Positions 19,671 through 62,827 of a stretch of DNA of 64,000 nucleotides are shown piece by piece. The translations under genes were made by a program, and so were the position numbers. How positions within the stretch are numbered: position 1 is the first letter of the stretch; the number at the start of each line of letters is the position of its first letter. The notes under the pieces are model-generated. The model ran no database searches. It saw only the letters and a list, made by a program, of their open reading frames with translations, and was not told the DNA's origin. Origin of the DNA: Alphaproteobacteria bacterium (GTDB lineage: Bacteria > Pseudomonadota > Alphaproteobacteria > Rs-D84); the NCBI GenBank assembly GCA_009783855.1, contig WRCO01000002.1, forward strand, positions 25,038 to 89,037, given 5' to 3'.

Positions 19671-19757
19671 TTCGTGTTGGCGGCTTGTGCTGGTGGCTGG
19701 TATATGCCACGAATCACCAGCACAAGCCACCAGTCACAACGAACGAAGTGAGTAGAA
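19671..19757. repeat. family A palindromic repeat between nusA and infB
   Basis: ttcgtgttggcggcttgtgctggtggctgg ... ccacgaatcaccagcacaagccaccagtcac, followed by aacgaagtgagtagaaATG (infB start). Confidence 0.7.
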
Positions 19758-29971: not shown

Positions 29972-30066
29972 AGAGCATAGGGCACAGATAAGTGTTGAAA
30001 TTAAAAAGATATTTTACGGATATTAAAAAAGCATCTATGCTCTATGCTCTATGCTCTATGCTCTTG
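29972..30066 (+). promoter_or_regulatory. conserved 5' cassette E1 plus (CTATGCT)x4 heptamer tract preceding the bamB-like gene
   Basis: cacagataagtgttgaaattaaaaagatattttacggatattaaaaaagcatct followed by atgctctatgctctatgctctatgctc. Near-identical copies are at 38930-39003 and 53440-53530; a diverged copy is at 40925-41040. Confidence 0.7.
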
Positions 30067-31934: not shown

Positions 31935-32708
31935 CTAACAACTTTTAGCTGTCAGTTGTGTTAACTCTTTCCCGGTCAATTCTCTGAACTTTCCAGATTC
32001 CAGATTCCCAAGTTCTATCGGGCCGTAAGATTCCCGATTCAGCTTGGATACAGGGAGTCCAATATAATCAAACGCGATGCGGATTTCGTTTTTCTTGCCC
32101 TCGGTCAATTTGATTTTTACAAGCAATGGATAACGCGACAGCAATTCAATCTCCATGGGTGCGTATTTCACGCCGTCTATTGTCGCGCCGCGGCGAAGCG
32201 AATCAAACACGGAATCGTCCGCCGAAAGGGGCGATAAGAATTCACGAAGACGGCGGACGCCGTTCGGAGATTTTGCCGCCCCCGGGTCGGGTCGAAGCTT
32301 TGCGGTGTATACGCGGACGATTTTGGATTCCGGCAATGTCAGGCGCCTTGCAATATCGCCGTCGTTGGTAAGCAGCAGCAGTCCCGTCGTTTTGTAATCC
32401 AGCCGCCCGACATATTTCAAACCGCGCATATTTTTTGGCAGACAGTCGTAAATTGTTTTACGTCCGTCGGGGTCGCGCAGCGTCGTCATTGTGTTTGCCG
32501 GCTTGTTGAATGCGATTATTTGTGTTCGGGTTCGTGTGCGGACGGGTTCGTTATTTATGGCGACGACGTCATTCGGTTCGACAAAAAAGACGGGTGTTGT
32601 AACCGGTTTGCCGTTTACGGAAACGGAACCGTTTTCGATAAGACGCTCGGCCTCGCGCCGCGATGCGCCGCCAGAGTCAGAAATAAATTTAGCAAGTCTT
32701 GTTTTCAT
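31935..32708 (-). CDS. pseudouridine synthase RsuA/RluB family (S4 domain + PSU catalytic domain)
   Basis: S4 motif RLAKFISDSGGASRREAERLIENGSVSVNG. Catalytic GRLDYKTTGLLLLTNDG. The C-terminal tail encodes a family D repeat (NLESGKFRELT). Confidence 0.8.
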   Translation of the reverse strand: MKTRLAKFISDSGGASRREAERLIENGSVSVNGKPVTTPVFFVEPNDVVAINNEPVRTRTRTQIIAFNKPANTMTTLRDPDGRKTIYDCLPKNMRGLKYVGRLDYKTTGLLLLTNDGDIARRLTLPESKIVRVYTAKLRPDPGAAKSPNGVRRLREFLSPLSADDSVFDSLRRGATIDGVKYAPMEIELLSRYPLLVKIKLTEGKKNEIRIAFDYIGLPVSKLNRESYGPIELGNLESGKFRELTGKELTQLTAKSC

Positions 32709-35035: not shown

Positions 35036-35722
35036 ATGAAAAATATACCAAGGATTTATATAAATGAAAATTTGGAAGTTGGGCGAAGTTTCCCGGTGTC
35101 CAGGGACATCGCGCATTATTTGACCCGTGTTATGCGAACGGACAGATGTTTGGTGTTCAATTATGGAAAAGAGTTCAAGGCTGAGCTTTCAGTTGTCAGC
35201 TGTTCGTTGTTAGTTGTCAGTCCTACTGGGCGGCCCGACCCGTCGAACAATTTGACGCTTGCGTTCGCGCCGGTAAAACAGGCGCGGATGGAGGAAATGC
35301 TTTCCATGGCGACCCAGATGGGCGTAAAAAGGCTTCAGCCCGTAATCACTGCCTTTGTAAATGAACATCATCCGAAATGGGAAAGGATTAAAAAAATTGT
35401 CATAGAGGCGGCGGAGCAATCCGGAAGAAACAGCGTGCCGGAATTGGCAGAGCCGCAAAAATTTACAGAATTTCTGCAGGGGGTAAAAGACTTGGTTTTT
35501 GCGGACGAACGGGCCGCGAGCCCCCGGTCCTTTCCAGATTCCGGGCTTGCGTTGCACGCGCCCCGGAATGACACAATCGTTTTGATAGGGTCAGAGGGCG
35601 GATTTTCAGACGCGGAATTTGATGCGCTGGACAAAGCGGGCGCGACTGGCATAAACCTTGGGCCGACAATTCTTCGGGCGGAGGTCGCTGCGGTGGTGGC
35701 GATTGCGAAAGTTGTTGGTTAA
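35036..35722 (+). CDS. rsmE: 16S rRNA (uracil1498-N3)-methyltransferase RsmE, with an in-frame family B repeat insertion
   Basis: N-terminus MKNIPRIYINENLEVG. SPOUT C-terminal IVLIGSEGGFSDAEFDALDKAGATGINLGPTILRAE. Residues ELSVVSCSLLVVSPTG are encoded by repeat 35188-35222. Confidence 0.8.
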   Translation: MKNIPRIYINENLEVGRSFPVSRDIAHYLTRVMRTDRCLVFNYGKEFKAELSVVSCSLLVVSPTGRPDPSNNLTLAFAPVKQARMEEMLSMATQMGVKRLQPVITAFVNEHHPKWERIKKIVIEAAEQSGRNSVPELAEPQKFTEFLQGVKDLVFADERAASPRSFPDSGLALHAPRNDTIVLIGSEGGFSDAEFDALDKAGATGINLGPTILRAEVAAVVAIAKVVG

Positions 35723-38929: not shown

Positions 38930-39003
38930 AGCAAAGACAATAGAGCGCAGATAAATGTTGAGATTAAAAAGATATTTTACGGATATTAAAAAAGCATCTA
39001 TGC
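38930..39003 (+). promoter_or_regulatory. conserved 5' cassette E2 (no heptamer expansion)
   Basis: cgcagataaatgttgagattaaaaagatattttacggatattaaaaaagcatctatgct. Confidence 0.7.
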
Positions 39004-40307
39004 TTTTGCCTGTGCGAACGCGTTCTCGCAGCGAGCGCGGCGCGACGCTTGTCGAACTTCTTCTTGCGCTGGCGGTGGCGGCGGCCATGCTTCCATTTAT
39101 AATAAGACAGGCCGACGTGCGGACCCGCCGCGCGGAAAATATAAAAGCCGCCGCCGACCTTGGCAAAGTCAAATCCGCGCTTGAAAGATATATGGAAGCG
39201 AACAGGCACGAGCTTTTCTCGACCATAAGCCGGAACGTCGTGCGCGTATCGATTTCCGATTTGGAAGAACACGGGCTTGATACCGCCAATCTTGACAAGT
39301 CGGAACAGTTCCAGATGCGCGTCGTTAAAAGCGCGGACCGGGGCGGGCGGTCGTTTCTTCAGGGCGTCGTCATCATGGACACGGAAGGCATCGCGCCGAT
39401 AAGGACGCGCGAAATCGCGGCAATCGCCGGCGGCGGCGCGGGATTCGCCGACGATAACATAACATACGGCGCATTCGGAACATGGCGCGTAAGCGCGAAC
39501 GTATGGAACGCGCGGTTTACCGACAGGTCGCTTCTTGAAGTCACGGATGCCATACGGTCGGGCGAAGAATTCCTGCGCCGCATAGTGTACGAAGACGGCG
39601 GCGCGATGATGCATTCGCCGCTTGCCCTTGGCGGGCACGACATAGTCAACGCGCGGTCGGTGTTCGCGGAATCCGCGCGCTTTGCCGAATTCGTGAATTT
39701 TACGAACGCATCGGCAAGCCGCCTTGTCATGGAAGGCAAACCGACACTTGACGGCAATGTGACCATATCCGGAGAATCAACGGTTTCGGGCGTGCTGAGT
39801 TCCGATTCACGAAGCATGGAAGTCGGCCGCATGACGGTATCCGGCACTTCGCGGTTCGGCACGGTTAATGCAAACGAATTATGGGCGGGCGATTTGGAGC
39901 TTGCCGGATTTTCGGTCCAAATTGACGAGCGTCGCCCCGCCACGCTGTCGGTCGGCCGGTCGATTGACATGACCGGCGGACGCGTTGTCTCCATGCTTGT
40001 CGCGGTGGGACACGGGGGAAGCACTACGCCGCGGCTTTTCGTAAAAGACCGGGTTGAAGACGCAAGAAATCCCGAATATTTTTGGGATGTCGCGACGGGT
40101 GAAGCCATGCTTTCCGACATATTTATCCCCGCGCTTTCCAATATGGCGCGGACCGCCATAGGCCGCGAACAGCCGGGAACGGAATCTCATCGCATCCTGT
40201 CCCAGGTTGCGAACAACGCCAACGCGACGGTCGCGGATTATATGCGCGCGCTTGCCGAAATAGAACGCCGCGTCACGGCAAGGTTTGATGCGTTGAATTT
40301 GGAATAA
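38955..40307 (+). CDS. TadE/G-like pseudopilin-family protein 3 (SERG|ATLVELLLALAVAAAMLPF)
   Basis: Class III signal with Glu at +5. Beta-helix-like repeats (GNVTISGESTVSGVLSS...MTVSGTSRFGTV). The probable true start is the ATG at 39000 (MLLPVRTRSRSERG leader). Confidence 0.45.
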   Translation: MLRLKRYFTDIKKASMLLPVRTRSRSERGATLVELLLALAVAAAMLPFIIRQADVRTRRAENIKAAADLGKVKSALERYMEANRHELFSTISRNVVRVSISDLEEHGLDTANLDKSEQFQMRVVKSADRGGRSFLQGVVIMDTEGIAPIRTREIAAIAGGGAGFADDNITYGAFGTWRVSANVWNARFTDRSLLEVTDAIRSGEEFLRRIVYEDGGAMMHSPLALGGHDIVNARSVFAESARFAEFVNFTNASASRLVMEGKPTLDGNVTISGESTVSGVLSSDSRSMEVGRMTVSGTSRFGTVNANELWAGDLELAGFSVQIDERRPATLSVGRSIDMTGGRVVSMLVAVGHGGSTTPRLFVKDRVEDARNPEYFWDVATGEAMLSDIFIPALSNMARTAIGREQPGTESHRILSQVANNANATVADYMRALAEIERRVTARFDALNLE

Positions 40308-40924: not shown

Positions 40925-41040
40925 CACATAGAACACAGATAATAGAACATAGATAGGAGAACGAACAAATGTTGAGATTCAAAAACAATTTTACAGGTCT
41001 TTGGAAAGCATCTGTGCTCTATGTTCTGTGCTCGATGCTC
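40925..41040 (+). promoter_or_regulatory. diverged conserved 5' cassette E3 with degenerate heptamer tract
   Basis: acagataatagaacatagataggagaacgaacaaatgttgagattcaaaaacaattttacaggtctttggaaagcatctgtgctctatgttctgtgctcgatgctc. Confidence 0.55.
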
Positions 41041-41493
41041 TTGGTCTCGGCGCGAGCCGCGCCGACATGTCCGCCGTGCGTATGCCCGTCCATACCGCCG
41101 TCGATTTTTTCGACAAGCACGGATTGGGAAGCGGTGACGGGGATGCGCCTTTCCGAATTTATGGTTTCGTTCGGTCGCGATGGAAGCATCGGCAATATCG
41201 GGTGGGAGATATATTTCCTTGACGGATTTCCATGCTATGGCCAATCGGAGACCGCGCGCATGTGGGTAAGTCCGTCGCGCCATTACGCAATCGACGGCGG
41301 CGCCGACGCGCGCGGCCGCATCACGTGCCTTTATGCGCCGAAAACCGTAAAGCTTGCATGGCGCGAGGCAAGGCGCGACGCGGCGCAGGCGCGCACACGC
41401 GGGATGGCCGTTTGCGAAGTGGAGCACAGCGGACGGAACATCACAATCCGATTGGACAAATGCGAAAGGACGGATTGGGGTGATTTGCGATAA
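40969..41493 (+). CDS. hypothetical secreted Cys-rich protein (174 aa)
   Basis: Signal peptide after the cassette leader. APTCPPCVCPSIPP motif. 8 Cys. Confidence 0.4.
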   Translation: MLRFKNNFTGLWKASVLYVLCSMLLVSARAAPTCPPCVCPSIPPSIFSTSTDWEAVTGMRLSEFMVSFGRDGSIGNIGWEIYFLDGFPCYGQSETARMWVSPSRHYAIDGGADARGRITCLYAPKTVKLAWREARRDAAQARTRGMAVCEVEHSGRNITIRLDKCERTDWGDLR

Positions 41494-42605: not shown

Positions 42606-45488
42606 ATGCGCTCATATTCCAAACCATTTTTTGTCTTTGCATTTTTTGCAATCGGGCTTGTCATATCCGCCGATGCCGCGCCAAGGGTGTCAAGCGTAAG
42701 GCCGGGCGTCACTGTCCAGTCTGCAAGGTCGCGCATATCCACCGCCGGTCTGCAGATTCAGGCGCCTATACCGGTGGTGCCGGCGCTTCCCGTATTCGAC
42801 GGAACGTGCGCGAATCCCGCGCCGGAACAATTGGACGCGCTTCGCTGCACCCAACGGTATTTCGCATGTCTTCGCCGCGATATGGTATGCGGGGAGCATT
42901 TCGAACTCTGCGACACTATCGCCCGGTTTAATCAACGGCGCATGTTTTGCCAGGATGAGCTTGCGCGTTGTCCCGCGACCGTCATCGCCGAACTTTTCGG
43001 CAATCCGATAACACAGACGGTCGACGCGGAAAACATGGCGATGTGCGACGGCCAATGGACGGTGGTCCGCCGCGATTTCACGCCCGGCCTTCACGATATT
43101 CAATTGGCGTTTAACGCAAGCCTTGGGCCCAATCAGCTTTCCGGAATCGGCCGCGAAATATGGGCCGGCGCCGAATGGGCGGCCGCCAATACTTTGAGGG
43201 TTTGCGAATCCGTCGCGAACGCATGCCTTACCCGCGCGTGCCGGAATGAACCGCACAAGTGTTTGGGACGGCAATTCCTGTTGCCACAGGTCGCGGATAT
43301 CGCGGGCCTGGCCAGCGATGAAACGGAAAGAACCCACGCCGGAATCGCGACCGAGCGCGCCCGGTTTGTGGTGCCGCCGACATTGGTGCGGAATTATGCC
43401 GAAAACATGCTTTGGGAAGATGCGAACGTGATGCAGTATCTTCGCGCGGAATGCGGGTCTGAAATCGGAACGAACGAACATTGTTTCCGCCTTGCCAATC
43501 CTAATTCAAGATTTGGGTCATCGGACCAGTTTGAGGCAAACCTTGCATTTGATACGGTAATGACGGGTGAAATAAACCGCCGCGCATGGGTACAGGCGCG
43601 AAGCATAGAATGGCTTGCCGCCGCGGTCGCCGAAGTGGTGACGTCGTGCGAATTGGCGATTGAAGATTGCGTAAAGAATACATGCGGGTTCGGTTCGATG
43701 GCTTCGTGTTACGGCCGCGCGCGCAACCGGGACGGGTTGGTCAACCTTGCCGCAGGCACGGTAAACGATGAAATCGCAAGAATATGCAGACCGCAGATTG
43801 CCGAGAATCAGCATTGCCGCGACCTTCGCCCCGCGGGCGAAAGCGCGACCGCGGTATGGACGCATTTCTGGGGCGCGGGGGCGGAATCGACGCGCCTTTC
43901 CGCACGCCTTTCGTCGCAATTGCAGAACGCGTTTTCTGAAACGGGCAAGGCGAATATGCGCCGCGCGTGCCAGACCGCCGCAACCGCGTGCGTGCGTCAG
44001 GAATGCGGAAACGATTTCACAAGATGCCTTGTCCGCGGCGCGGACGACGACACGGGCCGCCGGGAATTCAACAACGACGGCCGGCCGATAATTGCCGGAG
44101 CCCAGGCGGGCGGATTTTCGCAAGACATGGCGCGCGGGCTTTGCATGCTTACCGTAAAGGAAATACGGGCGTGCAACGATTGGTTCGATATACAGTTTGC
44201 GGAAAGCGCGATGACCGAAAGCGGTCAATGGGGCGCGCTTGATTCATGGACCGCGGGCCGCGATGCGCGGAACGCATGGGGGGGCGATAACAGAACCCAT
44301 GTATGCGTGCTTGAACGCATGCCGATGATAGAAGCGGAAGTGCAAGCAATCGGCGATATGAGGATGTTCAGAAACCTTGGCGTTGCAGCGCGGCGGGCCG
44401 ATGTTTCCGAAAACGACTTTGGATGCGCGATGCAGGGGCGCCGGATATTCGACGAACTTATCGCGGACATCGCGGCCGAGGCACAGCAAAGACTGATAGT
44501 CGCCGCGAACGAAGCAAAGAACCAATGCCTTGACAGAAACCGCGTGCGCGGGTTACAGGATAATTTCGTATGGGCGAATGTAAGCGACCTTCGCGACAGA
44601 TTCAACCCGGTACAGGGAATCCTTGTCCAGGATATAAGGCCGACGGCGGATATTTGGGATGGATTCTGTGCGGTGCGGATTACGATGAATTCGGACGATA
44701 CGATATTGAACAATCATTTGAGCGGCGTCATGGCGTCAAGGAATGTAAGATACTTTTCGGTGGGCGATGCCGCAGTCTGCGGAAGCTGGATGTCGCAAAG
44801 CGACCTTGAAAGTCTTGAAGACGCGGTGCGTGCCGCAAACCCGCAAAGCAGGGTGCAAAAGGGTACGTCCGGTCGATGGATGGGCGCGATTACGGGCATA
44901 CTTGGCGGCGGTGCCGGCGGTATAGCGGTTGGCAATATGATAGGTAATGCGGGGGCTAGAGACAACTGTACCACCAGAGGAGGCACATCTGCTTGTAATA
45001 TGTGTGGTCATCAAATAAGAGGTACTGATGCGGGTGACGTGGATGACAGAGTTTGGTATACATGCGATATTTCCATAATTGGAAACGAAGTTGTGGTGAG
45101 TAATCGCGAAACTTCACGGGAACCACCAGTGTCCGAAGGGGGCGGCGGACGTATTGGCGATACCTTTATAGCCAGCACCTTACGCGGTTGCAATGACGCG
45201 GTAGATAATCTTTTGAATCAGTGCAACGCAGGCAACCGCAACAGGACGATGCAGCTTGGGCGACATGGAATAACGGGTGGCCTTGTTGGCGCGGCGGGTC
45301 TTGGCGCCGTCGGACTTATCGCCGGAAACCAGATAGACGTGGCAAGACAAAGAACGGCCCAAGAAGAAGAACGCCTTAAACAAGATGCCGCCGTTGCCGA
45401 ATGGTTCAATACAATCGGTTCAAGAATCAATTGCTTCATCGACGGCAGACAGGTCGGAAGATTCGGAGATCCGATAGAGATAAGGTAA
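42606..45488 (+). CDS. large secreted Cys-repeat protein (960 aa) with C-terminal glycine-zipper segment
   Basis: Signal peptide FVFAFFAIGLVISADA. About 45 Cys in recurring AxxCxxxxCxxxxxxC units. C-terminal GITGGLVGAAGLGAVGLIAG. A terminator follows. Confidence 0.45.
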   Translation: MRSYSKPFFVFAFFAIGLVISADAAPRVSSVRPGVTVQSARSRISTAGLQIQAPIPVVPALPVFDGTCANPAPEQLDALRCTQRYFACLRRDMVCGEHFELCDTIARFNQRRMFCQDELARCPATVIAELFGNPITQTVDAENMAMCDGQWTVVRRDFTPGLHDIQLAFNASLGPNQLSGIGREIWAGAEWAAANTLRVCESVANACLTRACRNEPHKCLGRQFLLPQVADIAGLASDETERTHAGIATERARFVVPPTLVRNYAENMLWEDANVMQYLRAECGSEIGTNEHCFRLANPNSRFGSSDQFEANLAFDTVMTGEINRRAWVQARSIEWLAAAVAEVVTSCELAIEDCVKNTCGFGSMASCYGRARNRDGLVNLAAGTVNDEIARICRPQIAENQHCRDLRPAGESATAVWTHFWGAGAESTRLSARLSSQLQNAFSETGKANMRRACQTAATACVRQECGNDFTRCLVRGADDDTGRREFNNDGRPIIAGAQAGGFSQDMARGLCMLTVKEIRACNDWFDIQFAESAMTESGQWGALDSWTAGRDARNAWGGDNRTHVCVLERMPMIEAEVQAIGDMRMFRNLGVAARRADVSENDFGCAMQGRRIFDELIADIAAEAQQRLIVAANEAKNQCLDRNRVRGLQDNFVWANVSDLRDRFNPVQGILVQDIRPTADIWDGFCAVRITMNSDDTILNNHLSGVMASRNVRYFSVGDAAVCGSWMSQSDLESLEDAVRAANPQSRVQKGTSGRWMGAITGILGGGAGGIAVGNMIGNAGARDNCTTRGGTSACNMCGHQIRGTDAGDVDDRVWYTCDISIIGNEVVVSNRETSREPPVSEGGGGRIGDTFIASTLRGCNDAVDNLLNQCNAGNRNRTMQLGRHGITGGLVGAAGLGAVGLIAGNQIDVARQRTAQEEERLKQDAAVAEWFNTIGSRINCFIDGRQVGRFGDPIEIR

Positions 45489-45491
45489 ACA

Positions 45492-45521
45492 AAAACACCC
45501 GGCGAAAACCGGGTGTTTTTT
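45492..45521 (+). terminator. rho-independent terminator (aaacacccggcgaaaaccgggtgtttttt)
   Basis: 9-bp stem plus a T-run. Confidence 0.7.
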
Positions 45522-45541
45522 GTTTGCCTGTTCCGTGCTCT

Positions 45542-45570
45542 CCCCGTCATCCCGGCGAAGGCCGGGACCC
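45542..45570. repeat. family D inverted repeat, left arm (ccccgtcatcccggcgaaggccgggaccc), flanking the GIY-YIG gene
   Basis: Reverse-complementary to 45968-45993. Related copies at 60341-60368. Confidence 0.7.
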
Positions 45571-45577
45571 ACTGCCT

Positions 45578-45946
45578 TCAGGCTGTCTGTATATTTATCT
45601 CATCCGGCTTATATTCCGGCACAGGTTCAGCATAGGCATGTATGCCCGCGCCGCGAATTTCATCCCAAAGGTCTATCCAATACGGATTCTTGCTTATTAT
45701 CAAACGCAATTTCCAATTGCGTTTCCATTCTTTTAACTGTCTTTCCCGCCGAACCATTAATTCCATATCTTCAAAAAATTCATAATATACGATTTTATCA
45801 ACACCGTATTTCGTGGTAAACCCGCCGTAGAATTTTTCCTTGTGCTGTGCGACGCGGGCAATCAAATCGGAACTTGACCCGATGTACAGCGTTCCCATTT
45901 TATCGCTTGCTATAATATATACAAATCCGGCTTTCTTATTCAGCAT
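45578..45946 (-). CDS. GIY-YIG nuclease superfamily protein (small stand-alone type)
   Basis: FVYIIASDKMGTLYIGSSSDLIARVAQHKEK...YGVDKIVYYEFFEDMELMVRRERQLKEW gives the GIY...YIG motif plus conserved R and E. Confidence 0.7.
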   Translation of the reverse strand: MLNKKAGFVYIIASDKMGTLYIGSSSDLIARVAQHKEKFYGGFTTKYGVDKIVYYEFFEDMELMVRRERQLKEWKRNWKLRLIISKNPYWIDLWDEIRGAGIHAYAEPVPEYKPDEINIQTA

Positions 45947-45967
45947 CAGAGAATGTCGTTCCGCAAT

Positions 45968-45993
45968 GGTTCCCGGCCTTCGCCGGGATGACG
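45968..45993. repeat. family D inverted repeat, right arm (ggttcccggccttcgccgggatgacg)
   Basis: Pairs with 45542-45570 across the GIY-YIG gene. Confidence 0.7.
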
Positions 45994-46034
45994 TTAAGAA
46001 GTTGTTGAAAGTTTATAAAGTCGCGTCCGTATTT

Positions 46035-46706
46035 TTACAACTTCACAATTCCATTCGTTGCGAACAGCTGTCCGTTTTCTTCGTATATTTTTCCGCCGGA
46101 TTCAAGCACCATCAATTCTCCGGCGCAAAGCTCCGCGTAATTCAAAGGGTCGCTTATAAACGCGTCAAACTTTCCCGTTGCAACAAACGCCAAATCAAGC
46201 GCCGCACAGCCGGTCGCACGCTTCGCGCCGGTATTCGGTATCCGGTATTCGGTATTCGAATAACCGATGGTAAGGTCCGCCGGATCGGACAGTTTCGACA
46301 CGCGGTGGCGGTTGGAATGGAACGCACTGAAAATAAAACATCCCGCGTCTTTTTCCGCGTAATACAATTTATCCGCAATCGGCGCGTATGTAAGGCCTGC
46401 GCGCGCCTCGCCGTTCACGCGAAGCGCAAGCGTTATCGCAAAATGTGAATTGCCGCGCACGAAATTCTCGGCGCCCGAAAACGCCAAAACAAATTCGGAA
46501 ATCCCGTCGCCGTCCGTCGACATGTTCGGAGTCAATACGCCCGCAGTCGGCCGCACAAGCGTCAAATCCGACAGAATCATTTGTTCGATTCTTTGTTCGG
46601 CCCTGCGCACAAAATCGCGCGCGCCGGGCAATGATTGCTGAAGCTGTTCCACCTCTCCGAAATCGCGGCGGATACCCGTCGCCGTCCGCGACAATGCCGC
46701 AAACAT
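46035..46706 (-). pseudogene. inositol monophosphatase (SuhB) family, degenerate and N-terminally truncated
   Basis: C-terminal AALDLAFVATGKFDAFI motif is present. The catalytic DPxDGT is replaced by FSGAENF. A family D 52-bp repeat lies upstream (46756-46808). Confidence 0.4.
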
Positions 46707-46807
46707 CTGATTTAATTCCGAAGAGCCTTTTAAGAGGTTTTCTGTTCTTTCCAATTCCGGGTCCTTTCCAGATTCCGGACAATTGCTTCGCAATTTCCGG
46801 AATGACA

Positions 46808-47017
46808 CTAAAACTTGAAGCCGTCGAATTTCTTTTTGAACTTGTCCGCCTGCTGGCCTTTGTCCACGGACTGTTTCTGGCCGGTCCATGCGGTGTGGTT
46901 AAGGTTGTCGACGGACAAAACCTGGTCCTTTTTAACGCTTGAATACATTTTCACGGTCTTGCCGTCGGTCATCGTCACGTTGATTTCGTGATACGCCGGA
47001 TGAATGTTTTTTTTCAT
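46808..47017 (-). CDS. rpmE: 50S ribosomal protein L31 (type B, non-zinc)
   Basis: MKKNIHPAYHEINVTMTDGKTV... Confidence 0.8.
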   Translation of the reverse strand: MKKNIHPAYHEINVTMTDGKTVKMYSSVKKDQVLSVDNLNHTAWTGQKQSVDKGQQADKFKKKFDGFKF

Positions 47018-47816: not shown

Positions 47817-48036
47817 ATTAGTGGCTGGTGGCTAGTGATTAGTGGTTGGTGGTTTGTGGCTTGTGCCGGTGACTGGTACGGTTGTCTGATATATTAGACA
47901 ATCATTAATTAACGCATAAATTAAAGGCTGTCCACTATAGTGGACAGCCTTTAATTACAGGCCATTAATACGAACCACCGGCACGAGTCACGAGCACGAA
48001 TCGCCAGCACAAGCCACAAGCACAAGTCACCGGCCA
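47817..48036. repeat. largest family A composite palindromic repeat (~220 bp) with central perfect palindrome ggctgtccactatagtggacagcc
   Basis: Left arm tggtggctagtgattagtggttggtggtttgtggcttgtgccggtgactgg. Right arm cgaaccaccggcacgagtcacgagcacgaatcgccagcacaagccacaagcacaagtcaccgg. Confidence 0.7.
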
Positions 48037-48040
48037 TCAA

Positions 48041-53439: not shown

Positions 53440-53530
53440 CATGGATGGAGCACAGATAAGTGTCGAGATTAAAAAGATATTTTACGGATATTAAAAAAGC
53501 ATCTATGCTCTGTGCTCTGTGCTCTGTGCT
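53440..53530 (+). promoter_or_regulatory. conserved 5' cassette E4 plus (CTGTGCT)x4 heptamer tract
   Basis: cacagataagtgtcgagattaaaaagatattttacggatattaaaaaagcatctatgctctgtgctctgtgctctgtgctc. Confidence 0.7.
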
Positions 53531-54932
53531 CTTTTGCGGCTTTGCCGCAGATGCCGCGCCGGTAAGCAATATTCCGGGCGCCATTGCCGAATACGGCCAT
53601 TGGAATACAGATGAAACCCTTCGCCCCATGGTCGACGGAATCCGCAGTGATATAGCCGCGTTCGAAGCCGGGTTCGCAGAACAAGTATTTACCCAAGGTG
53701 ACCAGTTCGTGCCGCCCGAGGCGAAAATCGGACTTGCCATGATTAACGCGTTCACGATGGTCGCGCAATCAATCGACCGGACGCTTGGAAGTTTTGTCAT
53801 CGCGCTTCTTGTCGTTCTGTTCGCGTTCTGGGTGATGATGGAAACGTACCAGGTTATGAAGACCGGCGGCAATATAAGAGAACTTGCAATGAAAATCGTG
53901 CGCAAGGGTTTGTGGATTGCCGTATGGATTATCATACTGGCGTTCGGGCCCGCGCGATTATTCATGATGGTCGCAAGCCCGGTTATACAGGCGGGTATAA
54001 TCATGTCCGACCTTATACTTGATACCATGACCGAAGTCGCGGGCCTGCATCTTCTTGACACATGCGGCGCGATAAGGGGGTATGTCGCGGAAAGGCATAC
54101 GGGCGCCGGGCTTTTCAATGCGGAAGCCACGGCAGATATGCTTTGCATCCCGACAAGGCTTTCCGGATTCTTTTACACGTGCGTCGCGGCGGGATGGAAA
54201 TGGGTGGCGGCGGGCGCCGGAAATGTCTGGGCGGCGGGAACAACCGCGGTGGCGGGCGGGGTCGGCGGCGCCCTTCTTGGCGGCGGAGTGGCCGGGACGC
54301 TTGCCGGAGCCGGCGTCGGCGCCCTGACCGGCGGCGCGATAAGCGGCGGCAACATGCTTACATTCATCATGGGCCTTATATTTATCGCCATATTCGCGCG
54401 CAATATCTGGCTTTTCGCAATCGAAGCGCTTGGTGTTGTGGCAAGTCTTTTCCTTGCCGTCATGTTCTTGCCGTTCACCGCCGTCGCGGAATGTTTCGGG
54501 GGCGGCGAGACAAGCCTTAAAGACCGGGGGATATTCACGGAATTCTTCAAAATGCTTGCCAATATGGTCGGCGGCGGAAAATTGAAATTCCGCGGCCAGC
54601 TTCAGACATTCATAAACGCCGCGATTTATTTTGTGGCCTTGTCCGTTGTGTCTGCCATCGGGCTTGCCCTTCTTGCACAGGTCATCGGACCAAGTCCCGC
54701 GGATTTTGCGGACTCCGTCCCGACGGCGGAAAACAGCACAAGTTTCATGATGGTGCTTGTCGTCGGAATGCTTGTGTCGCATCTTGCCAAAAAGGCGGGC
54801 GATATTGCAAAAGACCTTGGCGGGTCCATAGATGCCGAATTTGGGAAACGGCTTGACGCACAGGCGCAATCTTTACGCGGCTGGGCGGTAGGCAGCGCAA
54901 AGAAATGGTACGGGGTGTTTAAGGGGAAATGA
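53460..54932 (+). CDS. polytopic membrane protein, paralog P5 (cassette-type leader; Gly-rich GxxxG segment)
   Basis: 490 aa. Signal MLCALCSVLFCGFAADA. AGTTAVAGGVGGALLGGGVAGTLAGAGVGALTGG. C-terminus AKKWYGVFKGK. Confidence 0.4.
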   Translation: MSRLKRYFTDIKKASMLCALCSVLFCGFAADAAPVSNIPGAIAEYGHWNTDETLRPMVDGIRSDIAAFEAGFAEQVFTQGDQFVPPEAKIGLAMINAFTMVAQSIDRTLGSFVIALLVVLFAFWVMMETYQVMKTGGNIRELAMKIVRKGLWIAVWIIILAFGPARLFMMVASPVIQAGIIMSDLILDTMTEVAGLHLLDTCGAIRGYVAERHTGAGLFNAEATADMLCIPTRLSGFFYTCVAAGWKWVAAGAGNVWAAGTTAVAGGVGGALLGGGVAGTLAGAGVGALTGGAISGGNMLTFIMGLIFIAIFARNIWLFAIEALGVVASLFLAVMFLPFTAVAECFGGGETSLKDRGIFTEFFKMLANMVGGGKLKFRGQLQTFINAAIYFVALSVVSAIGLALLAQVIGPSPADFADSVPTAENSTSFMMVLVVGMLVSHLAKKAGDIAKDLGGSIDAEFGKRLDAQAQSLRGWAVGSAKKWYGVFKGK

Positions 54933-57446: not shown

Positions 57447-58526
57447 ATGAAAATATGGATAGCCACAGGCGGAACGGGCGGGCATGTGTTCCCGGCGCTT
57501 GCCGTTGCGGCGGAACTTGTAAAGCGAGGCGACCGGGTCATAATATCCGCCGACGGGCGCGTTCAAGAAATGATTCGCAAAAACAAACCGGCGGGCGCGG
57601 GCACCGCGTTCGTATGGGCGTCCGGCGTCGGCGCAAAATCGTCCGTCCGGCAATTAATCGCGTTGTTCAAAATCGGATGTTCGGCGTCGGCGCTTGCCCT
57701 TCGCTTTATGGTTTTGCGCCCGGACAAGGTTGTCGCGTTCGGCGGATACGCGTCCGTTCCCGCAATACTTGCCGCGCGCGCGTTTCGCATTCCGACATAC
57801 CTTCACGAACAGAACGCGCATATCGGCCGCGCGAATCTGTTTGCGTTGCGCTGGGTCGACGTGCTTATGACATCGTTTCCGAAAGTGTCCGGTATTCGGC
57901 ATTCGGATACGGTATCCGGCAAACTACGCGTTGTTTATACCGGTCTTCCGGTTCGGAAAGATTTTATAGATGCCGCGTCCGAATACCGAATACCGAATGC
58001 CGAATACCGGCTGTTGATAACCGGAGGAAGTTTGGGCTCGCAGATTCTGGACGATGTTGTGCCGAACGCTGTGGCGGCGCTGTCCGCGTCCGTCAAGAAA
58101 AAGCTTTTCGTCGTTCATCAAACGCGGCCGGATGCCGTTGCCCGTCTGCAAAGGTTTTACGCCCACAACGGAATCCGCGCGAACGTTCTGTCGTTCATAC
58201 ACGACATGGCGGCGCAGATGGCGGCGGCCGACCTTGTCATTTCGCGCGCGGGCGCAAGCACCGTCGTCGAATTGCAAACCGTGGGCCGGGCGGCGATTCT
58301 GGTGCCTCTTGCCATCAATCCGGACCAGCCGGCGAATGCGGACGCATTCGCGAAAACCGGCGCCGGATTCAATGTGGCGCAAAGCAAATTTACGGTCAAA
58401 TGGCTGTCGGCAACGCTTGCCGAATTGTTTTCCAATCCCGCGCGGCTTCTGAAAATGAGCTCAAGGGCCCGACAGGAAAACAACGCCGTTGAAAATATAA
58501 TAAAGACGCTGGGCATTGATAGTTAA
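57447..58526 (+). CDS. murG: UDP-N-acetylglucosamine--N-acetylmuramyl-(pentapeptide) pyrophosphoryl-undecaprenol GlcNAc transferase
   Basis: RBS ggagg. MKIWIATGGTGGHVFPALAVA. GT28 C-terminal ITGGSLGSQ. Confidence 0.9.
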   Translation: MKIWIATGGTGGHVFPALAVAAELVKRGDRVIISADGRVQEMIRKNKPAGAGTAFVWASGVGAKSSVRQLIALFKIGCSASALALRFMVLRPDKVVAFGGYASVPAILAARAFRIPTYLHEQNAHIGRANLFALRWVDVLMTSFPKVSGIRHSDTVSGKLRVVYTGLPVRKDFIDAASEYRIPNAEYRLLITGGSLGSQILDDVVPNAVAALSASVKKKLFVVHQTRPDAVARLQRFYAHNGIRANVLSFIHDMAAQMAAADLVISRAGASTVVELQTVGRAAILVPLAINPDQPANADAFAKTGAGFNVAQSKFTVKWLSATLAELFSNPARLLKMSSRARQENNAVENIIKTLGIDS

Positions 58527-58536
58527 AGGTTGCAAA

Positions 58537-59181
58537 ATGAAAATAAAAACAAAACGAATCACCAGCACAAGCCACCGGCCACGAATCGTCCTGTTCGATT
58601 TCGACGGGACTTTGTCGTCGCACGATACGAATGTAGAGTTTGGGAAATATTGCTTCAGACATTCGTCAAGACCTTGGCTTTTTCTGCCCGTTGTTGCGGC
58701 GGGGGCGGTCCTTAAATGGGCTGTCGGACATGACCGCGGATTCCGGGTTCGCAAAATCGACATCGTATGGCGACAGATGGTACGGTGTTTTATTACGTCC
58801 AAGATGGCGAAAAAACTCGCGCCGGGATTTGTCCGGGAACATAAAATGCGTCGGTTCGGATGGGCCGCCGAACAGGTCGCTAAAGAACGAAAAGCTGGGA
58901 ATTTCGTGATACTTTCAAGCGCGACGCCTTCGTATCTGATTCTGCCTCTTGTATCCGATATGGATTTCGATTTGATAATCGCGTCACAGGTTGATTCAAA
59001 GCGCCCGTGGAAAATAAAATTCCTTAACTGGGGCCATAACAAGGTTATGGCGCTTGAAAAGGTCATAGCGGGGCGCAAAGTCGTCCGCGCTTATTCGGAC
59101 AGCGCTTTCGACACGCCAATGATGGATTTGGCAAAGGAACAGGTTTGGATTAATCCAAAAACCGGATGTCGGGAAAATTAA
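58537..59181 (+). CDS. HAD-superfamily hydrolase (HAD-IB/phosphoserine phosphatase-like); N-terminus encoded by a family A repeat
   Basis: IVLFDFDGTL motif I. Residues ITSTSHRPRI derive from repeat 58558-58587. Confidence 0.5.
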   Translation: MKIKTKRITSTSHRPRIVLFDFDGTLSSHDTNVEFGKYCFRHSSRPWLFLPVVAAGAVLKWAVGHDRGFRVRKIDIVWRQMVRCFITSKMAKKLAPGFVREHKMRRFGWAAEQVAKERKAGNFVILSSATPSYLILPLVSDMDFDLIIASQVDSKRPWKIKFLNWGHNKVMALEKVIAGRKVVRAYSDSAFDTPMMDLAKEQVWINPKTGCREN

Positions 59182-60244: not shown

Positions 60245-60340
60245 TCGGATTTCCTTTGTTATGATTATAAAGTGAAAAGTGATAGGTGAAAAGTGAAAAA
60301 TGGCTGTGTCGCGCTTTGCGCGGCGATTCTATAAACAATG

Positions 60341-60368
60341 GATCCCCGTCTTCGCGGGGATGACGGTA
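60341..60368. repeat. family D repeat (ggatccccgtcttcgcggggatgacggtaaacgc) upstream of the def start
   Basis: Would encode IPVFAGMTVNA if translated. Confidence 0.6.
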
Positions 60369-62027: not shown

Positions 62028-62827
62028 CGCGATACAAACTGATTCTTGAATATGACGGAACGGATACCGTCGGATGGCAGACACAGGCGGACGGCGTGTC
62101 TGTCCAGTCGTTGTTGCAAGACGCAATTTTTCAATTCTGCAAAGAGCGCGTCGAAGTGGTCGCGGCGGGCCGCACCGATGCGGGTGTGCACGCGCTTGCG
62201 ATGACGGCGCATTTTGATTTGGAAAAAGAGGCCGAACCGGAAACGGTTATGGCGGCGGTGAATTTCCACCTGAATAGCGCGCCACCCTTCGCCGAGGCTT
62301 CGGGTGGCAGGCCGGTTTCGGTGTTGGCATGCAAGCGTGTCGACGAAAATTTTCACGCGCGGTTTGGGTGCAGAATGCGGCGCTATAAATACGTCATCCT
62401 TAATCGGCGGGCGCCCGTGGTTCTTGATAAAAACCGGGTATGGTGGGTGCCGCGACCTTTGGATATTGACGCGATGCGGGCGGCGGCGGTGCGATTGGTG
62501 GGCGAACATGATTGGACATCGTTCCGCGCAGCGGAGTGTCAGGGGAAATCCCCAATTAAAACGTTGGATGAGATAAAAATAATTTCCGGGGCTTTCCAGA
62601 GCCCGGACAATTGCGCTTTGCGCGATTTCCGGGATGACACAATAATTTTTGAATTTTCCGCGCGGTCGTTTTTACATCACCAGGTTCGGAATATGGTCGG
62701 AACCCTTGTCGAAATCGGACTTGGCAAACCGTACGACATAGATGAAATCTTCACGGCGAAAAACCGCGCCGCCGCCGGTCCGACCGCGCCGGCATCGGGC
62801 CTTTATTTTGTCGGTGCGGAATATTAA
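62024..62827 (+). CDS. truA: tRNA pseudouridine(38-40) synthase TruA, with a probable in-frame family D repeat insertion
   Basis: MTRYKLILEYDGTDTVGWQTQ, RTDAGVHA and FLHHQVRNMVG. Residues GAFQSPDNCALRDFRDD are encoded by 62590-62641. Confidence 0.9.
   Translation: MTRYKLILEYDGTDTVGWQTQADGVSVQSLLQDAIFQFCKERVEVVAAGRTDAGVHALAMTAHFDLEKEAEPETVMAAVNFHLNSAPPFAEASGGRPVSVLACKRVDENFHARFGCRMRRYKYVILNRRAPVVLDKNRVWWVPRPLDIDAMRAAAVRLVGEHDWTSFRAAECQGKSPIKTLDEIKIISGAFQSPDNCALRDFRDDTIIFEFSARSFLHHQVRNMVGTLVEIGLGKPYDIDEIFTAKNRAAAGPTAPASGLYFVGAEY
62590..62641. repeat. family D long (52-bp) element inside truA
   Basis: gctttccagagcccggacaattgcgctttgcgcgatttccgggatgacac is about 85% identical to 46756-46808 (tcctttccagattccggacaattgcttcgcaatttccggaatgacac). 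Confidence 0.65.

Follow-up and report, generated by a model that had tools for sequence, protein, structure and literature searches.

The stretch of DNA considered here, a window of 64,000 nucleotides (nt) from contig WRCO01000002.1 of the alphaproteobacterial genome assembly GCA_009783855.1, harbours on its minus strand at positions 45578 to 45946 an open reading frame (ORF) of 122 amino acids (aa) which, based on Pfam and homology, is assigned to the Ssn family of single-domain GIY-YIG nucleases and is called ssn in the following. It is located between a convergent gene on the plus strand, coding for a cysteine-rich protein of 960 aa, and a co-directional suhB-like inositol-monophosphatase gene on the minus strand. 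These are the two neighbours already named by the first-pass annotation of this DNA, the former having no match in Pfam and the latter being recognised as an inositol monophosphatase by Pfam.

The gene is bracketed by the arms of a 31-nt inverted repeat (45545-45575 and 45963-45993), which are complementary at 29 of 31 positions (94%) and 387 nt apart, the entire cassette having a size of 449 bp. The inverted repeats, which had initially been described with a length of 25 bp, are accordingly real and even longer than noted. Both arms contain the identical 23-nt core CGTCATCCCGGCGAAGGCCGGGA, and with up to three mismatches this core is found three times in the window, in contrast to 0.00 times in 100 dinucleotide-preserving shuffles. 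The arms match the published consensus of the Ssn-related motif (SRM; see below), of which the cassette carries a single copy per side. The SRM 5′ of ssn (45963-45993, minus strand, motif match at 45966-45993) has the orientation CGTCAT... on the coding strand, its end lying 16 nt in front of the ATG, and the SRM 3′ of ssn (45545-45575, plus strand, motif match at 45545-45572) is inverted with its CGTCAT facing outwards and starts 2 nt past the stop codon. As single-stranded DNA (ssDNA) the former folds into a 7-bp stem with a GAAG loop (-9.6 kcal/mol), and the fold of the latter has an energy of -9.2 kcal/mol. The third copy is a solo SRM of the short type (60338-60365, minus strand) with three mismatches to the core, which matches the SRM motif and lies in a divergent intergenic region directly 5′ of def, a gene recognisable by the peptide-deformylase motifs GVGLAAPQ, EGCLS and HEIDH in its product. 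A related repeat in front of def, previously placed at 60341-60368, is thus indeed present, and when translated in the def frame it reads WIPVFAGMT.

The only Pfam domain of the ssn product is GIY-YIG (PF01541; E = 2.1e-14, 54 bits compared to a cut-off of 22.6), which spans residues 7 to 79, and with 122 aa the protein falls within the size range of Ssn proteins (a single domain, at most 150 aa). Its AlphaFold model has a predicted local distance difference test (pLDDT) score of 88 overall and of more than 90 for residues 7 to 103, and the tail from about residue 104 to residue 122 is modelled with low confidence and free of domains. The best fold matches of this model in the PDB are the GIY-YIG proteins UPF0213 (1ZG2), Slx1 and UvrC. 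By sequence, the best PDB match is likewise UPF0213 1ZG2 with an E-value of 0.067, and neither the sequence search nor the structure search with the model found an Ssn structure in the PDB. No specific model of NCBIfam was matched, the sole hit being the sub-threshold model TIGR01453 for group I intron endonucleases (24.4 bits, cut-off 56.05). In PADLOC there was no match for the Ssn protein or for its neighbours, and membership in a known defence system was therefore rejected.

The Ssn family consists of small single-domain GIY-YIG proteins, roughly corresponding to CDD cd10448 (GIY-YIG_unchar_3), the genes of which are flanked by SRMs, with the Neisseria version of the motif being termed NTS (CGTCATTCCCGCGMAVGCGGGAATCYRG) (Chenal et al. 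2025, Nat Commun 16:2388, PMC11893778). It was shown that SsnA of Neisseria meningitidis binds the NTS solely as ssDNA and in a strand-specific manner, cutting a few nt upstream of the motif, that cleavage is governed by the bases just 5′ of the palindrome, and that the most important base for binding is the C just 3′ of it (PMC11893778). Cleavage is abolished in the mutants Y6A, Y17A and E64A, double-stranded DNA (dsDNA) is not acted upon, and three more homologs, including the one from Wolbachia, cut ssDNA near their own SRM (PMC11893778). Strand-specific ssDNA cleavage without strand transfer is the only activity demonstrated for Ssn, and in vivo SsnA reduces transformation by NTS-bearing DNA about five-fold (PMC11893778).

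With respect to the repeats, a scan of the 64-kb window with the published SRM motif, HGTCWYN(0-2)YYVSBRHN(0-5)WNVSBRGN(0-2)RNCYNB (PMC11893778), returns exactly the three copies described above and nothing else, with 0.19 matches expected from 100 shuffles, and there is an SRM within 500 bp of the gene on both its 5′ and its 3′ side. All three share with the NTS of Neisseria the CGTCAT, a hairpin of 7 bp and the conserved C, which occupies position 25 in them. With respect to the protein, homology to Ssn has been defined as a BLASTP match to Neisseria SsnA that has E <= 1e-10 and covers at least 75% of the query (PMC11893778). The ssn product is 52% identical to the product of a 94-aa ORF of Neisseria gonorrhoeae over 89 of the 94 residues (BLASTP, E = 1e-32), which is well beyond these thresholds. 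This gonococcal ORF has the length of meningococcal SsnA and 16 NTS copies within about 1 kb, and was taken from two N. gonorrhoeae records in PLSDB with one match each to the window protein. Both records (L155, NZ_CP119140.1, and NZ_CP119142.1) are listed in PLSDB as plasmids of 2.17 Mb and are evidently chromosomes. The gonococcal ssnA ortholog is not annotated in them, and the NTS copies nearest to it face inwards. Residues Y10, Y21 and E68 of the window protein align with the catalytic residues Y6, Y17 and E64 of meningococcal SsnA, and across 40 homologs Y21, G23, R31, H35, E68 and N87 are invariant, with Y10 being present in at least 90%.

A GIY-YIG domain together with a weak match to TIGR01453 could also suggest a free-standing homing endonuclease of the I-TevI/Seg type, which would cut dsDNA at its cognate empty site and for which the repeats would be incidental. 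However, the TIGR01453 score of 24.4 bits is far below the cut-off, a DNA-binding module is missing from the 122-aa single-domain protein, and the SsnA enzyme to which it is 52% identical (via the gonococcal ortholog) is inactive on dsDNA. Moreover, the gene does not reside in an intron or phage context but in the chromosome between suhB and a gene for a secreted protein, and the viral contig collection contains only two relatives, for which reason a phage link was rejected as well. A homing endonuclease is therefore highly improbable at this locus.

The association of gene and repeat extends to the relatives of ssn. A phmmer search against 1.84 billion representative proteins yielded 9273 relatives, of which 2488 have E <= 1e-10 and nearly all are between 95 and 170 aa in length, with N- and C-terminal extensions that represent translated SRMs (RECGNPE, SFLRKQESS, VTPAQAGVQ, PSFRGDA). 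By scanning 185,579 species genomes with a query set of nine sequences, 64 loci of relatives were retrieved, mostly from metagenome-assembled genomes (MAGs) of gut Alphaproteobacteria (Candidatus Enterousia and unnamed relatives), with some from Burkholderiales and Patescibacteria. In 53 of these 64 loci an SRM lies no more than 400 bp from the gene, and 36 have one on either side, figures which are lower bounds as variants such as those with a GGAT loop escape the published motif, and only few SRMs are found elsewhere within 3 kb on either side. Of 40 loci with SRMs on two sides, 36 have their nearest pair inverted, facing outwards in 18 and inwards in 18.

In addition, 98.9% of all cells of the 7-bp stem are paired over 107 distinct SRM 28-mers, and 135 double-sided stem changes compare to 36 in shuffles, a signal that collapses when the register is shifted. 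Since the published motif prescribes base classes and not complementarity, these pairing statistics provide genuine support for the hairpin. The two arms of one cassette carry the same stem variant and agree at 16.9 of 18 positions as opposed to 13.2 of 18 between cassettes, the differences between cassettes being compensatory. Over the 12 nt preceding 169 SRMs on their 5′ side, no base is consistently preferred except for a pyrimidine at position -1.

These comparisons also bear on the possibility that the repeats are generic REP-like (repetitive extragenic palindrome) or terminator hairpins lying by chance on either side of a UPF0213/YhbQ-type housekeeping gene with a GIY-YIG domain, without any functional link. 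The repeats are indeed intergenic and GC-rich, a nearby terminator has a similar stem (see below), and the best fold match in the PDB is 1ZG2. Against such a coincidence stand the gene-repeat association in 53 of 64 relatives with its concentration within 400 bp, the strong bias towards inverted orientation, and the fact that upon inspection of the window sequence no T-tract follows the SRM hairpins. With chance flanking of this kind being hardly credible, an identity of the protein as UPF0213 was rejected also on the grounds that the sequence match to 1ZG2 has an E-value of only 0.067, compared to 1e-32 for Neisseria SsnA.

Taken together, the motif match of all repeats, the homology to SsnA, the intact catalytic residues, the architecture of the locus, the association in relatives and the compensatory hairpin changes make it very probable, as far as can be judged from sequence, that the locus consists of a gene for a site-specific ssDNA endonuclease of the Ssn family between two inverted copies of its cognate SRM. 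A few points weigh against this assignment. The gonococcal ortholog stood in for meningococcal SsnA (CAX49033.1) in the comparison, the C-terminal tail of about 25 aa is absent from the 94-aa Neisseria enzyme, and the window contains only three short SRMs with no large repeat expansion of the kind seen in Neisseria or Wolbachia. Furthermore, specificity varies among Ssn homologs, with the Wolbachia SRM being cut solely by the Wolbachia enzyme (PMC11893778), and the position and efficiency of cleavage at the present locus are thus extrapolated. The SRM-ssn-SRM arrangement is a further example of the published one rather than an element of a new kind. The first-pass annotation was right in treating the gene and its repeats as a single unit, for which it had no name; the unit is ssn flanked by SRMs. 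Its alternative that the repeats simply mark the boundaries of the gene is too weak, as they represent the recognition sites predicted for the encoded enzyme.

The hypothesis that SRM-ssn-SRM units are mobile was raised by Chenal et al. 2025 (PMC11893778). By analogy to REPs and their REP-associated tyrosine transposases (RAYTs), the cassette might be, or might until recently have been, an autonomous mobile element with the SRMs as its ends, Ssn as its nuclease and the solo SRMs as non-autonomous derivatives. This proposal, which is compatible with the Ssn assignment and concerns origin and spread, is a possible but rather doubtful one. In its favour, the closest homologs (74, 69 and 59% identity) reside on contigs without similarity to the flanks of the window, each in a compact SRM(+)-ssn-SRM(-) arrangement with matched arms. 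Eight MAGs carry two copies each. Where copies lie in different contexts, the likeness of their DNA does not extend beyond a block of 380-550 bp with the gene and its SRMs, and in one pair it stops where the downstream SRM has its outer end. For instance, two copies in one MAG (L025 and L033) with 96% protein identity share 92.7% DNA identity over 384 bp only, L031 and L032 share 95% over 546 bp, and the pairs L013/L015 and L022/L066 behave alike. In the case of the homolog P0004 (68% identity), two contigs agree at 98.8% over the cassette and a further 230 bp, in contrast to 76% for the adjacent gene; the identical block begins at the CGTCAT of an SRM, and one of the contigs carries an extra SRM-bearing insert. 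Also the greater likeness of the arms within than between cassettes and the low G + C content of ssn (41.5% compared to 52% for the window) are in line with mobility, as is the insertion of a solo long-hairpin SRM between rpmE and suhB where relatives have none (see below).

Two contigs that have one and the same ssn gene, L006 and L005, differ in an insert of 118 bp (1595-1712 of L006, compared to position 4945 of L005), which brings an additional SRM in inverted orientation into the space separating the upstream SRM from the gene. A segment of about 144 bp downstream of this gene recurs elsewhere on L005 (2500-2641).

The region 3′ of suhB provides further points in favour of mobility. In the nearest relative by SuhB (L072, 77% identity), in which the gene order orf441-orf180-rpmE-suhB is conserved with the window, a different Ssn paralog occupies this site and starts 8 nt after suhB. 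This paralog is only 38% identical to the window protein but 55-58% identical to other members of the family, and has a KGGSR variant of the conserved helix. In more distant relatives (L073 and L074; 72% and 67% SuhB identity), tRNA genes are found at this site and the cassette is absent. In this region of L072 (5678-6371), there are also, behind the Ssn gene, at least four copies of a CGTCAT-led repeat class, CGTCATTGCGAGGAG...GCAATCCAG, two of which lie in a duplicated unit of about 140 bp.

However, a number of observations argue against mobility. The sequences flanking the cassette, GTGCTCTCCC (45535-45544) and TTAAGAAGTT (45994-46003), contain no direct repeat, and a target-site duplication, a check that had been suggested for this cassette, is thus absent. 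A SuhB search of metagenomes yielded four close loci, none of which is a clean empty site, and the relatives that lack the cassette also have a different neighbour. The 64-kb window holds a single cassette. There is no DDE, HUH, serine or tyrosine recombinase, the product of the only ORF of the cassette being a GIY-YIG nuclease, no joining activity is known for Ssn, and the inverted SRMs offer just one cleavable site per strand. For several locus types, synteny is conserved over many MAGs and the Ssn sequences cluster by locus, which implies long vertical inheritance, and four contigs from other samples that encode the exact protein have the same neighbour on every side covered (four of four). 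The low G + C content is a family-wide trait that includes Neisseria, and was for this reason rejected as a sign of recent transfer. Finally, block boundaries at repeats could also result from homologous recombination between dispersed SRMs, and the binning of MAGs may mix strains. While the earlier description as a mobile or formerly mobile cassette is hence supported at the family level by varied contexts, two-copy MAGs, cassette-limited similarity and the paralog swap, the checks suggested for this copy gave no positive result, and there is no sign of its recent movement.

In the relatives in which ssn is adjacent to a gene for the large cysteine-rich protein, ssn is on the opposite strand relative to the window. 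Inversion of the cassette by recombination between its arms and independent insertion are indistinguishable here, because the rpmE-suhB block is rearranged as well and the Ssn proteins next to this gene are not mutual closest relatives. Homologs of the 960-aa protein (about 20-24% identity) are encoded directly upstream of ssn and on the same strand in seven MAGs of gut Alphaproteobacteria (L013, L026, L029, L031, L033, L036 and L067), unlike in the window, where the two genes are convergent. The gene itself (42606-45488) codes for a protein with a signal-peptide-like sequence that belongs to no Pfam or PADLOC family.

Going one step further, the cassette could be conceived as a minimal transposon of about 450 bp representing a new mechanistic class, in which a GIY-YIG ssDNA nuclease as the only protein would nick closely outside each terminal hairpin, on opposite strands, and host replication or repair would complete the movement, with short and long-hairpin SRMs as non-autonomous derivatives. 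This suggestion draws on the cassette-limited homology blocks, the matched arms, the 36:4 bias towards inverted pairs and the paralog replacement at the suhB 3′ site, and is to be considered unlikely.

As to the mode of action, which is deduced by homology from the biochemistry of the four characterised Ssn homologs, the SRM hairpin would extrude whenever the region becomes single-stranded, be it in incoming transforming or conjugating DNA or in intermediates of replication or repair. The ssn product would then bind the extruded hairpin in a strand-specific manner and cut a few nt 5′ of the CGTCAT. The cuts predicted in this way would fall near 45541/45542 (plus strand) and 45996/45997 (minus strand), and thus just outside either end of the cassette and on opposite strands. 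Two candidates are likely for the role of the system, which is uncertain. It may restrict or modulate ssDNA that carries SRMs, like its counterpart in N. meningitidis, it may be a selfish or domesticated element, or both may apply.

No promoter-like site was found between suhB and ssn, and the only terminator lies downstream of ssn and its distal SRM, so that the simplest reading is a common transcript of rpmE-suhB and ssn, which probably ends at 45520-45491. This bidirectional intrinsic terminator (45491-45520, -15.2 kcal/mol, z = -4.6) is common to ssn and the convergent 960-aa gene and is also terminator-like on the minus strand. The strong terminator reported by the first-pass annotation is therefore real, but with respect to the leftward-reading ssn it is located downstream and not upstream of the gene. 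Its stem CCCGGCGAAAACCGGG (45498-45513) shares 88% identity with the SRM stem CCCGGCGAAGGCCGGG, which lies at a distance of 53 nt, a likeness that could be due to chance or to a decayed SRM having been recruited as terminator.

Besides the short SRMs, the window contains a family of SRM-like elements of the form TGTCAT-YCCGG...CCGGR-MTCTGGAAAG, the ends of which are SRM-like and the hairpin of which is longer and partly variable. As its loop exceeds the 5 nt permitted by the published SRM motif, this family is missed by the latter. Its outer bases GTCATTCC...GGAATCTGG are those of the Neisseria NTS. The first copy (46768-46807, minus strand, TGTCAT-TCCGG...CCGGA-ATCTGG) has a fold of -11.8 kcal/mol (z = -3.7), two more copies on the minus strand were located by pattern scan and sequence at 62596-62639 and 35534-35573, and a fourth, degenerate copy, TCTGGAAAG, lies near 31990. 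The element at 46768-46807 sits exactly between the stop codon of rpmE (46810-46808) and the start of suhB. In the relatives L073, L029 and L036 it is missing and the rpmE stop overlaps the suhB start or lies within about 25 nt of it, which constitutes a filled versus an empty site for a solo hairpin at rpmE/suhB. In this context, suhB probably starts with the TTG at 46754, which is in frame, or with the ATG at 46706, and not at 46889, where the 284-aa ORF begins.

A dispersed repeat of about 89 nt is present in four copies (29977-30065, 38940-39028, 40954-41042 and 53445-53533), which are 73-92% identical to the reference copy and mostly end in tandem CTATGCT/CTGTGCT heptamers, and further intergenic families are rich in heptamers of the CACCAGC type (e.g., 47964-48037, 19709-19737 and 58554-58582). 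Both kinds probably correspond to the other repeat families of the first-pass annotation. Within the coding region of suhB, a 32-nt run of GGTATTC/CGAATAC heptamers (46227-46258) has a 94% complementary copy 11.7 kb away (57980-58011), and the SuhB segment encoded by this run differs from that of the relative L073. A search against Rfam gave nothing above threshold except a tRNA-Gln.

With this locus, one more Ssn/SRM pair becomes available from an uncultured alphaproteobacterium, and its stem variant CCCGGC-GAAG-GCCGGG could serve as a further enzyme/site pair for ssDNA tools. The comparative results bear on the question left open by the 2025 paper of whether SRM-ssn-SRM units move as units. 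The clade of gut Alphaproteobacteria appears well suited to address it, with its compact cassettes whose matched arms face outwards, its several paralogous loci per genome, its homology blocks of cassette size in differing contexts and paralog replacement at a single site. Since longer loops and stems are missed by the published SRM motif, SRM counts based on it are lower bounds.

Amongst known systems, GIY-YIG homing endonucleases such as I-TevI and Seg have the catalytic fold and a link to gene mobility in common with the cassette. However, they have 200 aa or more, including a DNA-binding domain at the C-terminus, cleave dsDNA and are found in introns or in the genomes of phages, in contrast to the window protein, which is below the TIGR01453 cut-off. 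UPF0213/YhbQ (1ZG2, 1YWL) and the nuclease domain of Slx1 are the closest solved folds, and UPF0213 is also of similar size, but the similarity in sequence is marginal (E = 0.067) and no flanking hairpin repeats have been reported for them. With insertion sequences the cassette shares the format of a unit of about 450 bp with 31-nt terminal inverted repeats and one ORF, related units of which occur in different contexts, but it lacks a target-site duplication, a recognised transposase family and a second copy in the window.

The REP/RAYT system, a relative of IS200/IS605, is similar in its arrangement, in that a single-copy or few-copy nuclease gene is bracketed by inverted copies of a hairpin recognised as ssDNA, with solo copies being dispersed over intergenic regions. 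RAYTs, however, are HUH/Y1 enzymes that cleave and rejoin DNA, whereas Ssn is a hydrolytic GIY-YIG nuclease with no known joining activity and unrelated in sequence and fold. Although the cassette does have the flanking inverted hairpins, its protein is thus of the GIY-YIG and not of the HUH (Y1_Tnp) type, and the likeness is one of arrangement only.

The system that corresponds most closely is Ssn with its NTS/SRM, as represented by SsnA of N. meningitidis (NMV_0044/NMB0047) and the homologs from Neisseria elongata, Neisseria wadsworthii and Wolbachia pipientis (PMC11893778). Differences concern the stem (CCCGGC/GCCGGG in the window compared to TTCCCGCG/GCGGGAA in the NTS), the orientation of the nearest SRMs, which face outwards in the window with CGTCAT at the outer ends but inwards at the gonococcal gene, and their number, with one SRM per side in the window in contrast to arrays. 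Also the host differs in being an uncultured alphaproteobacterium known solely from metagenome assemblies, and its system is one known from sequence. What the two have in common is a small single-domain GIY-YIG protein with the catalytic residues Tyr, Tyr and Glu, encoded by a gene that has on both sides an intergenic 28-nt element composed of CGTCAT, a hairpin and a conserved C.

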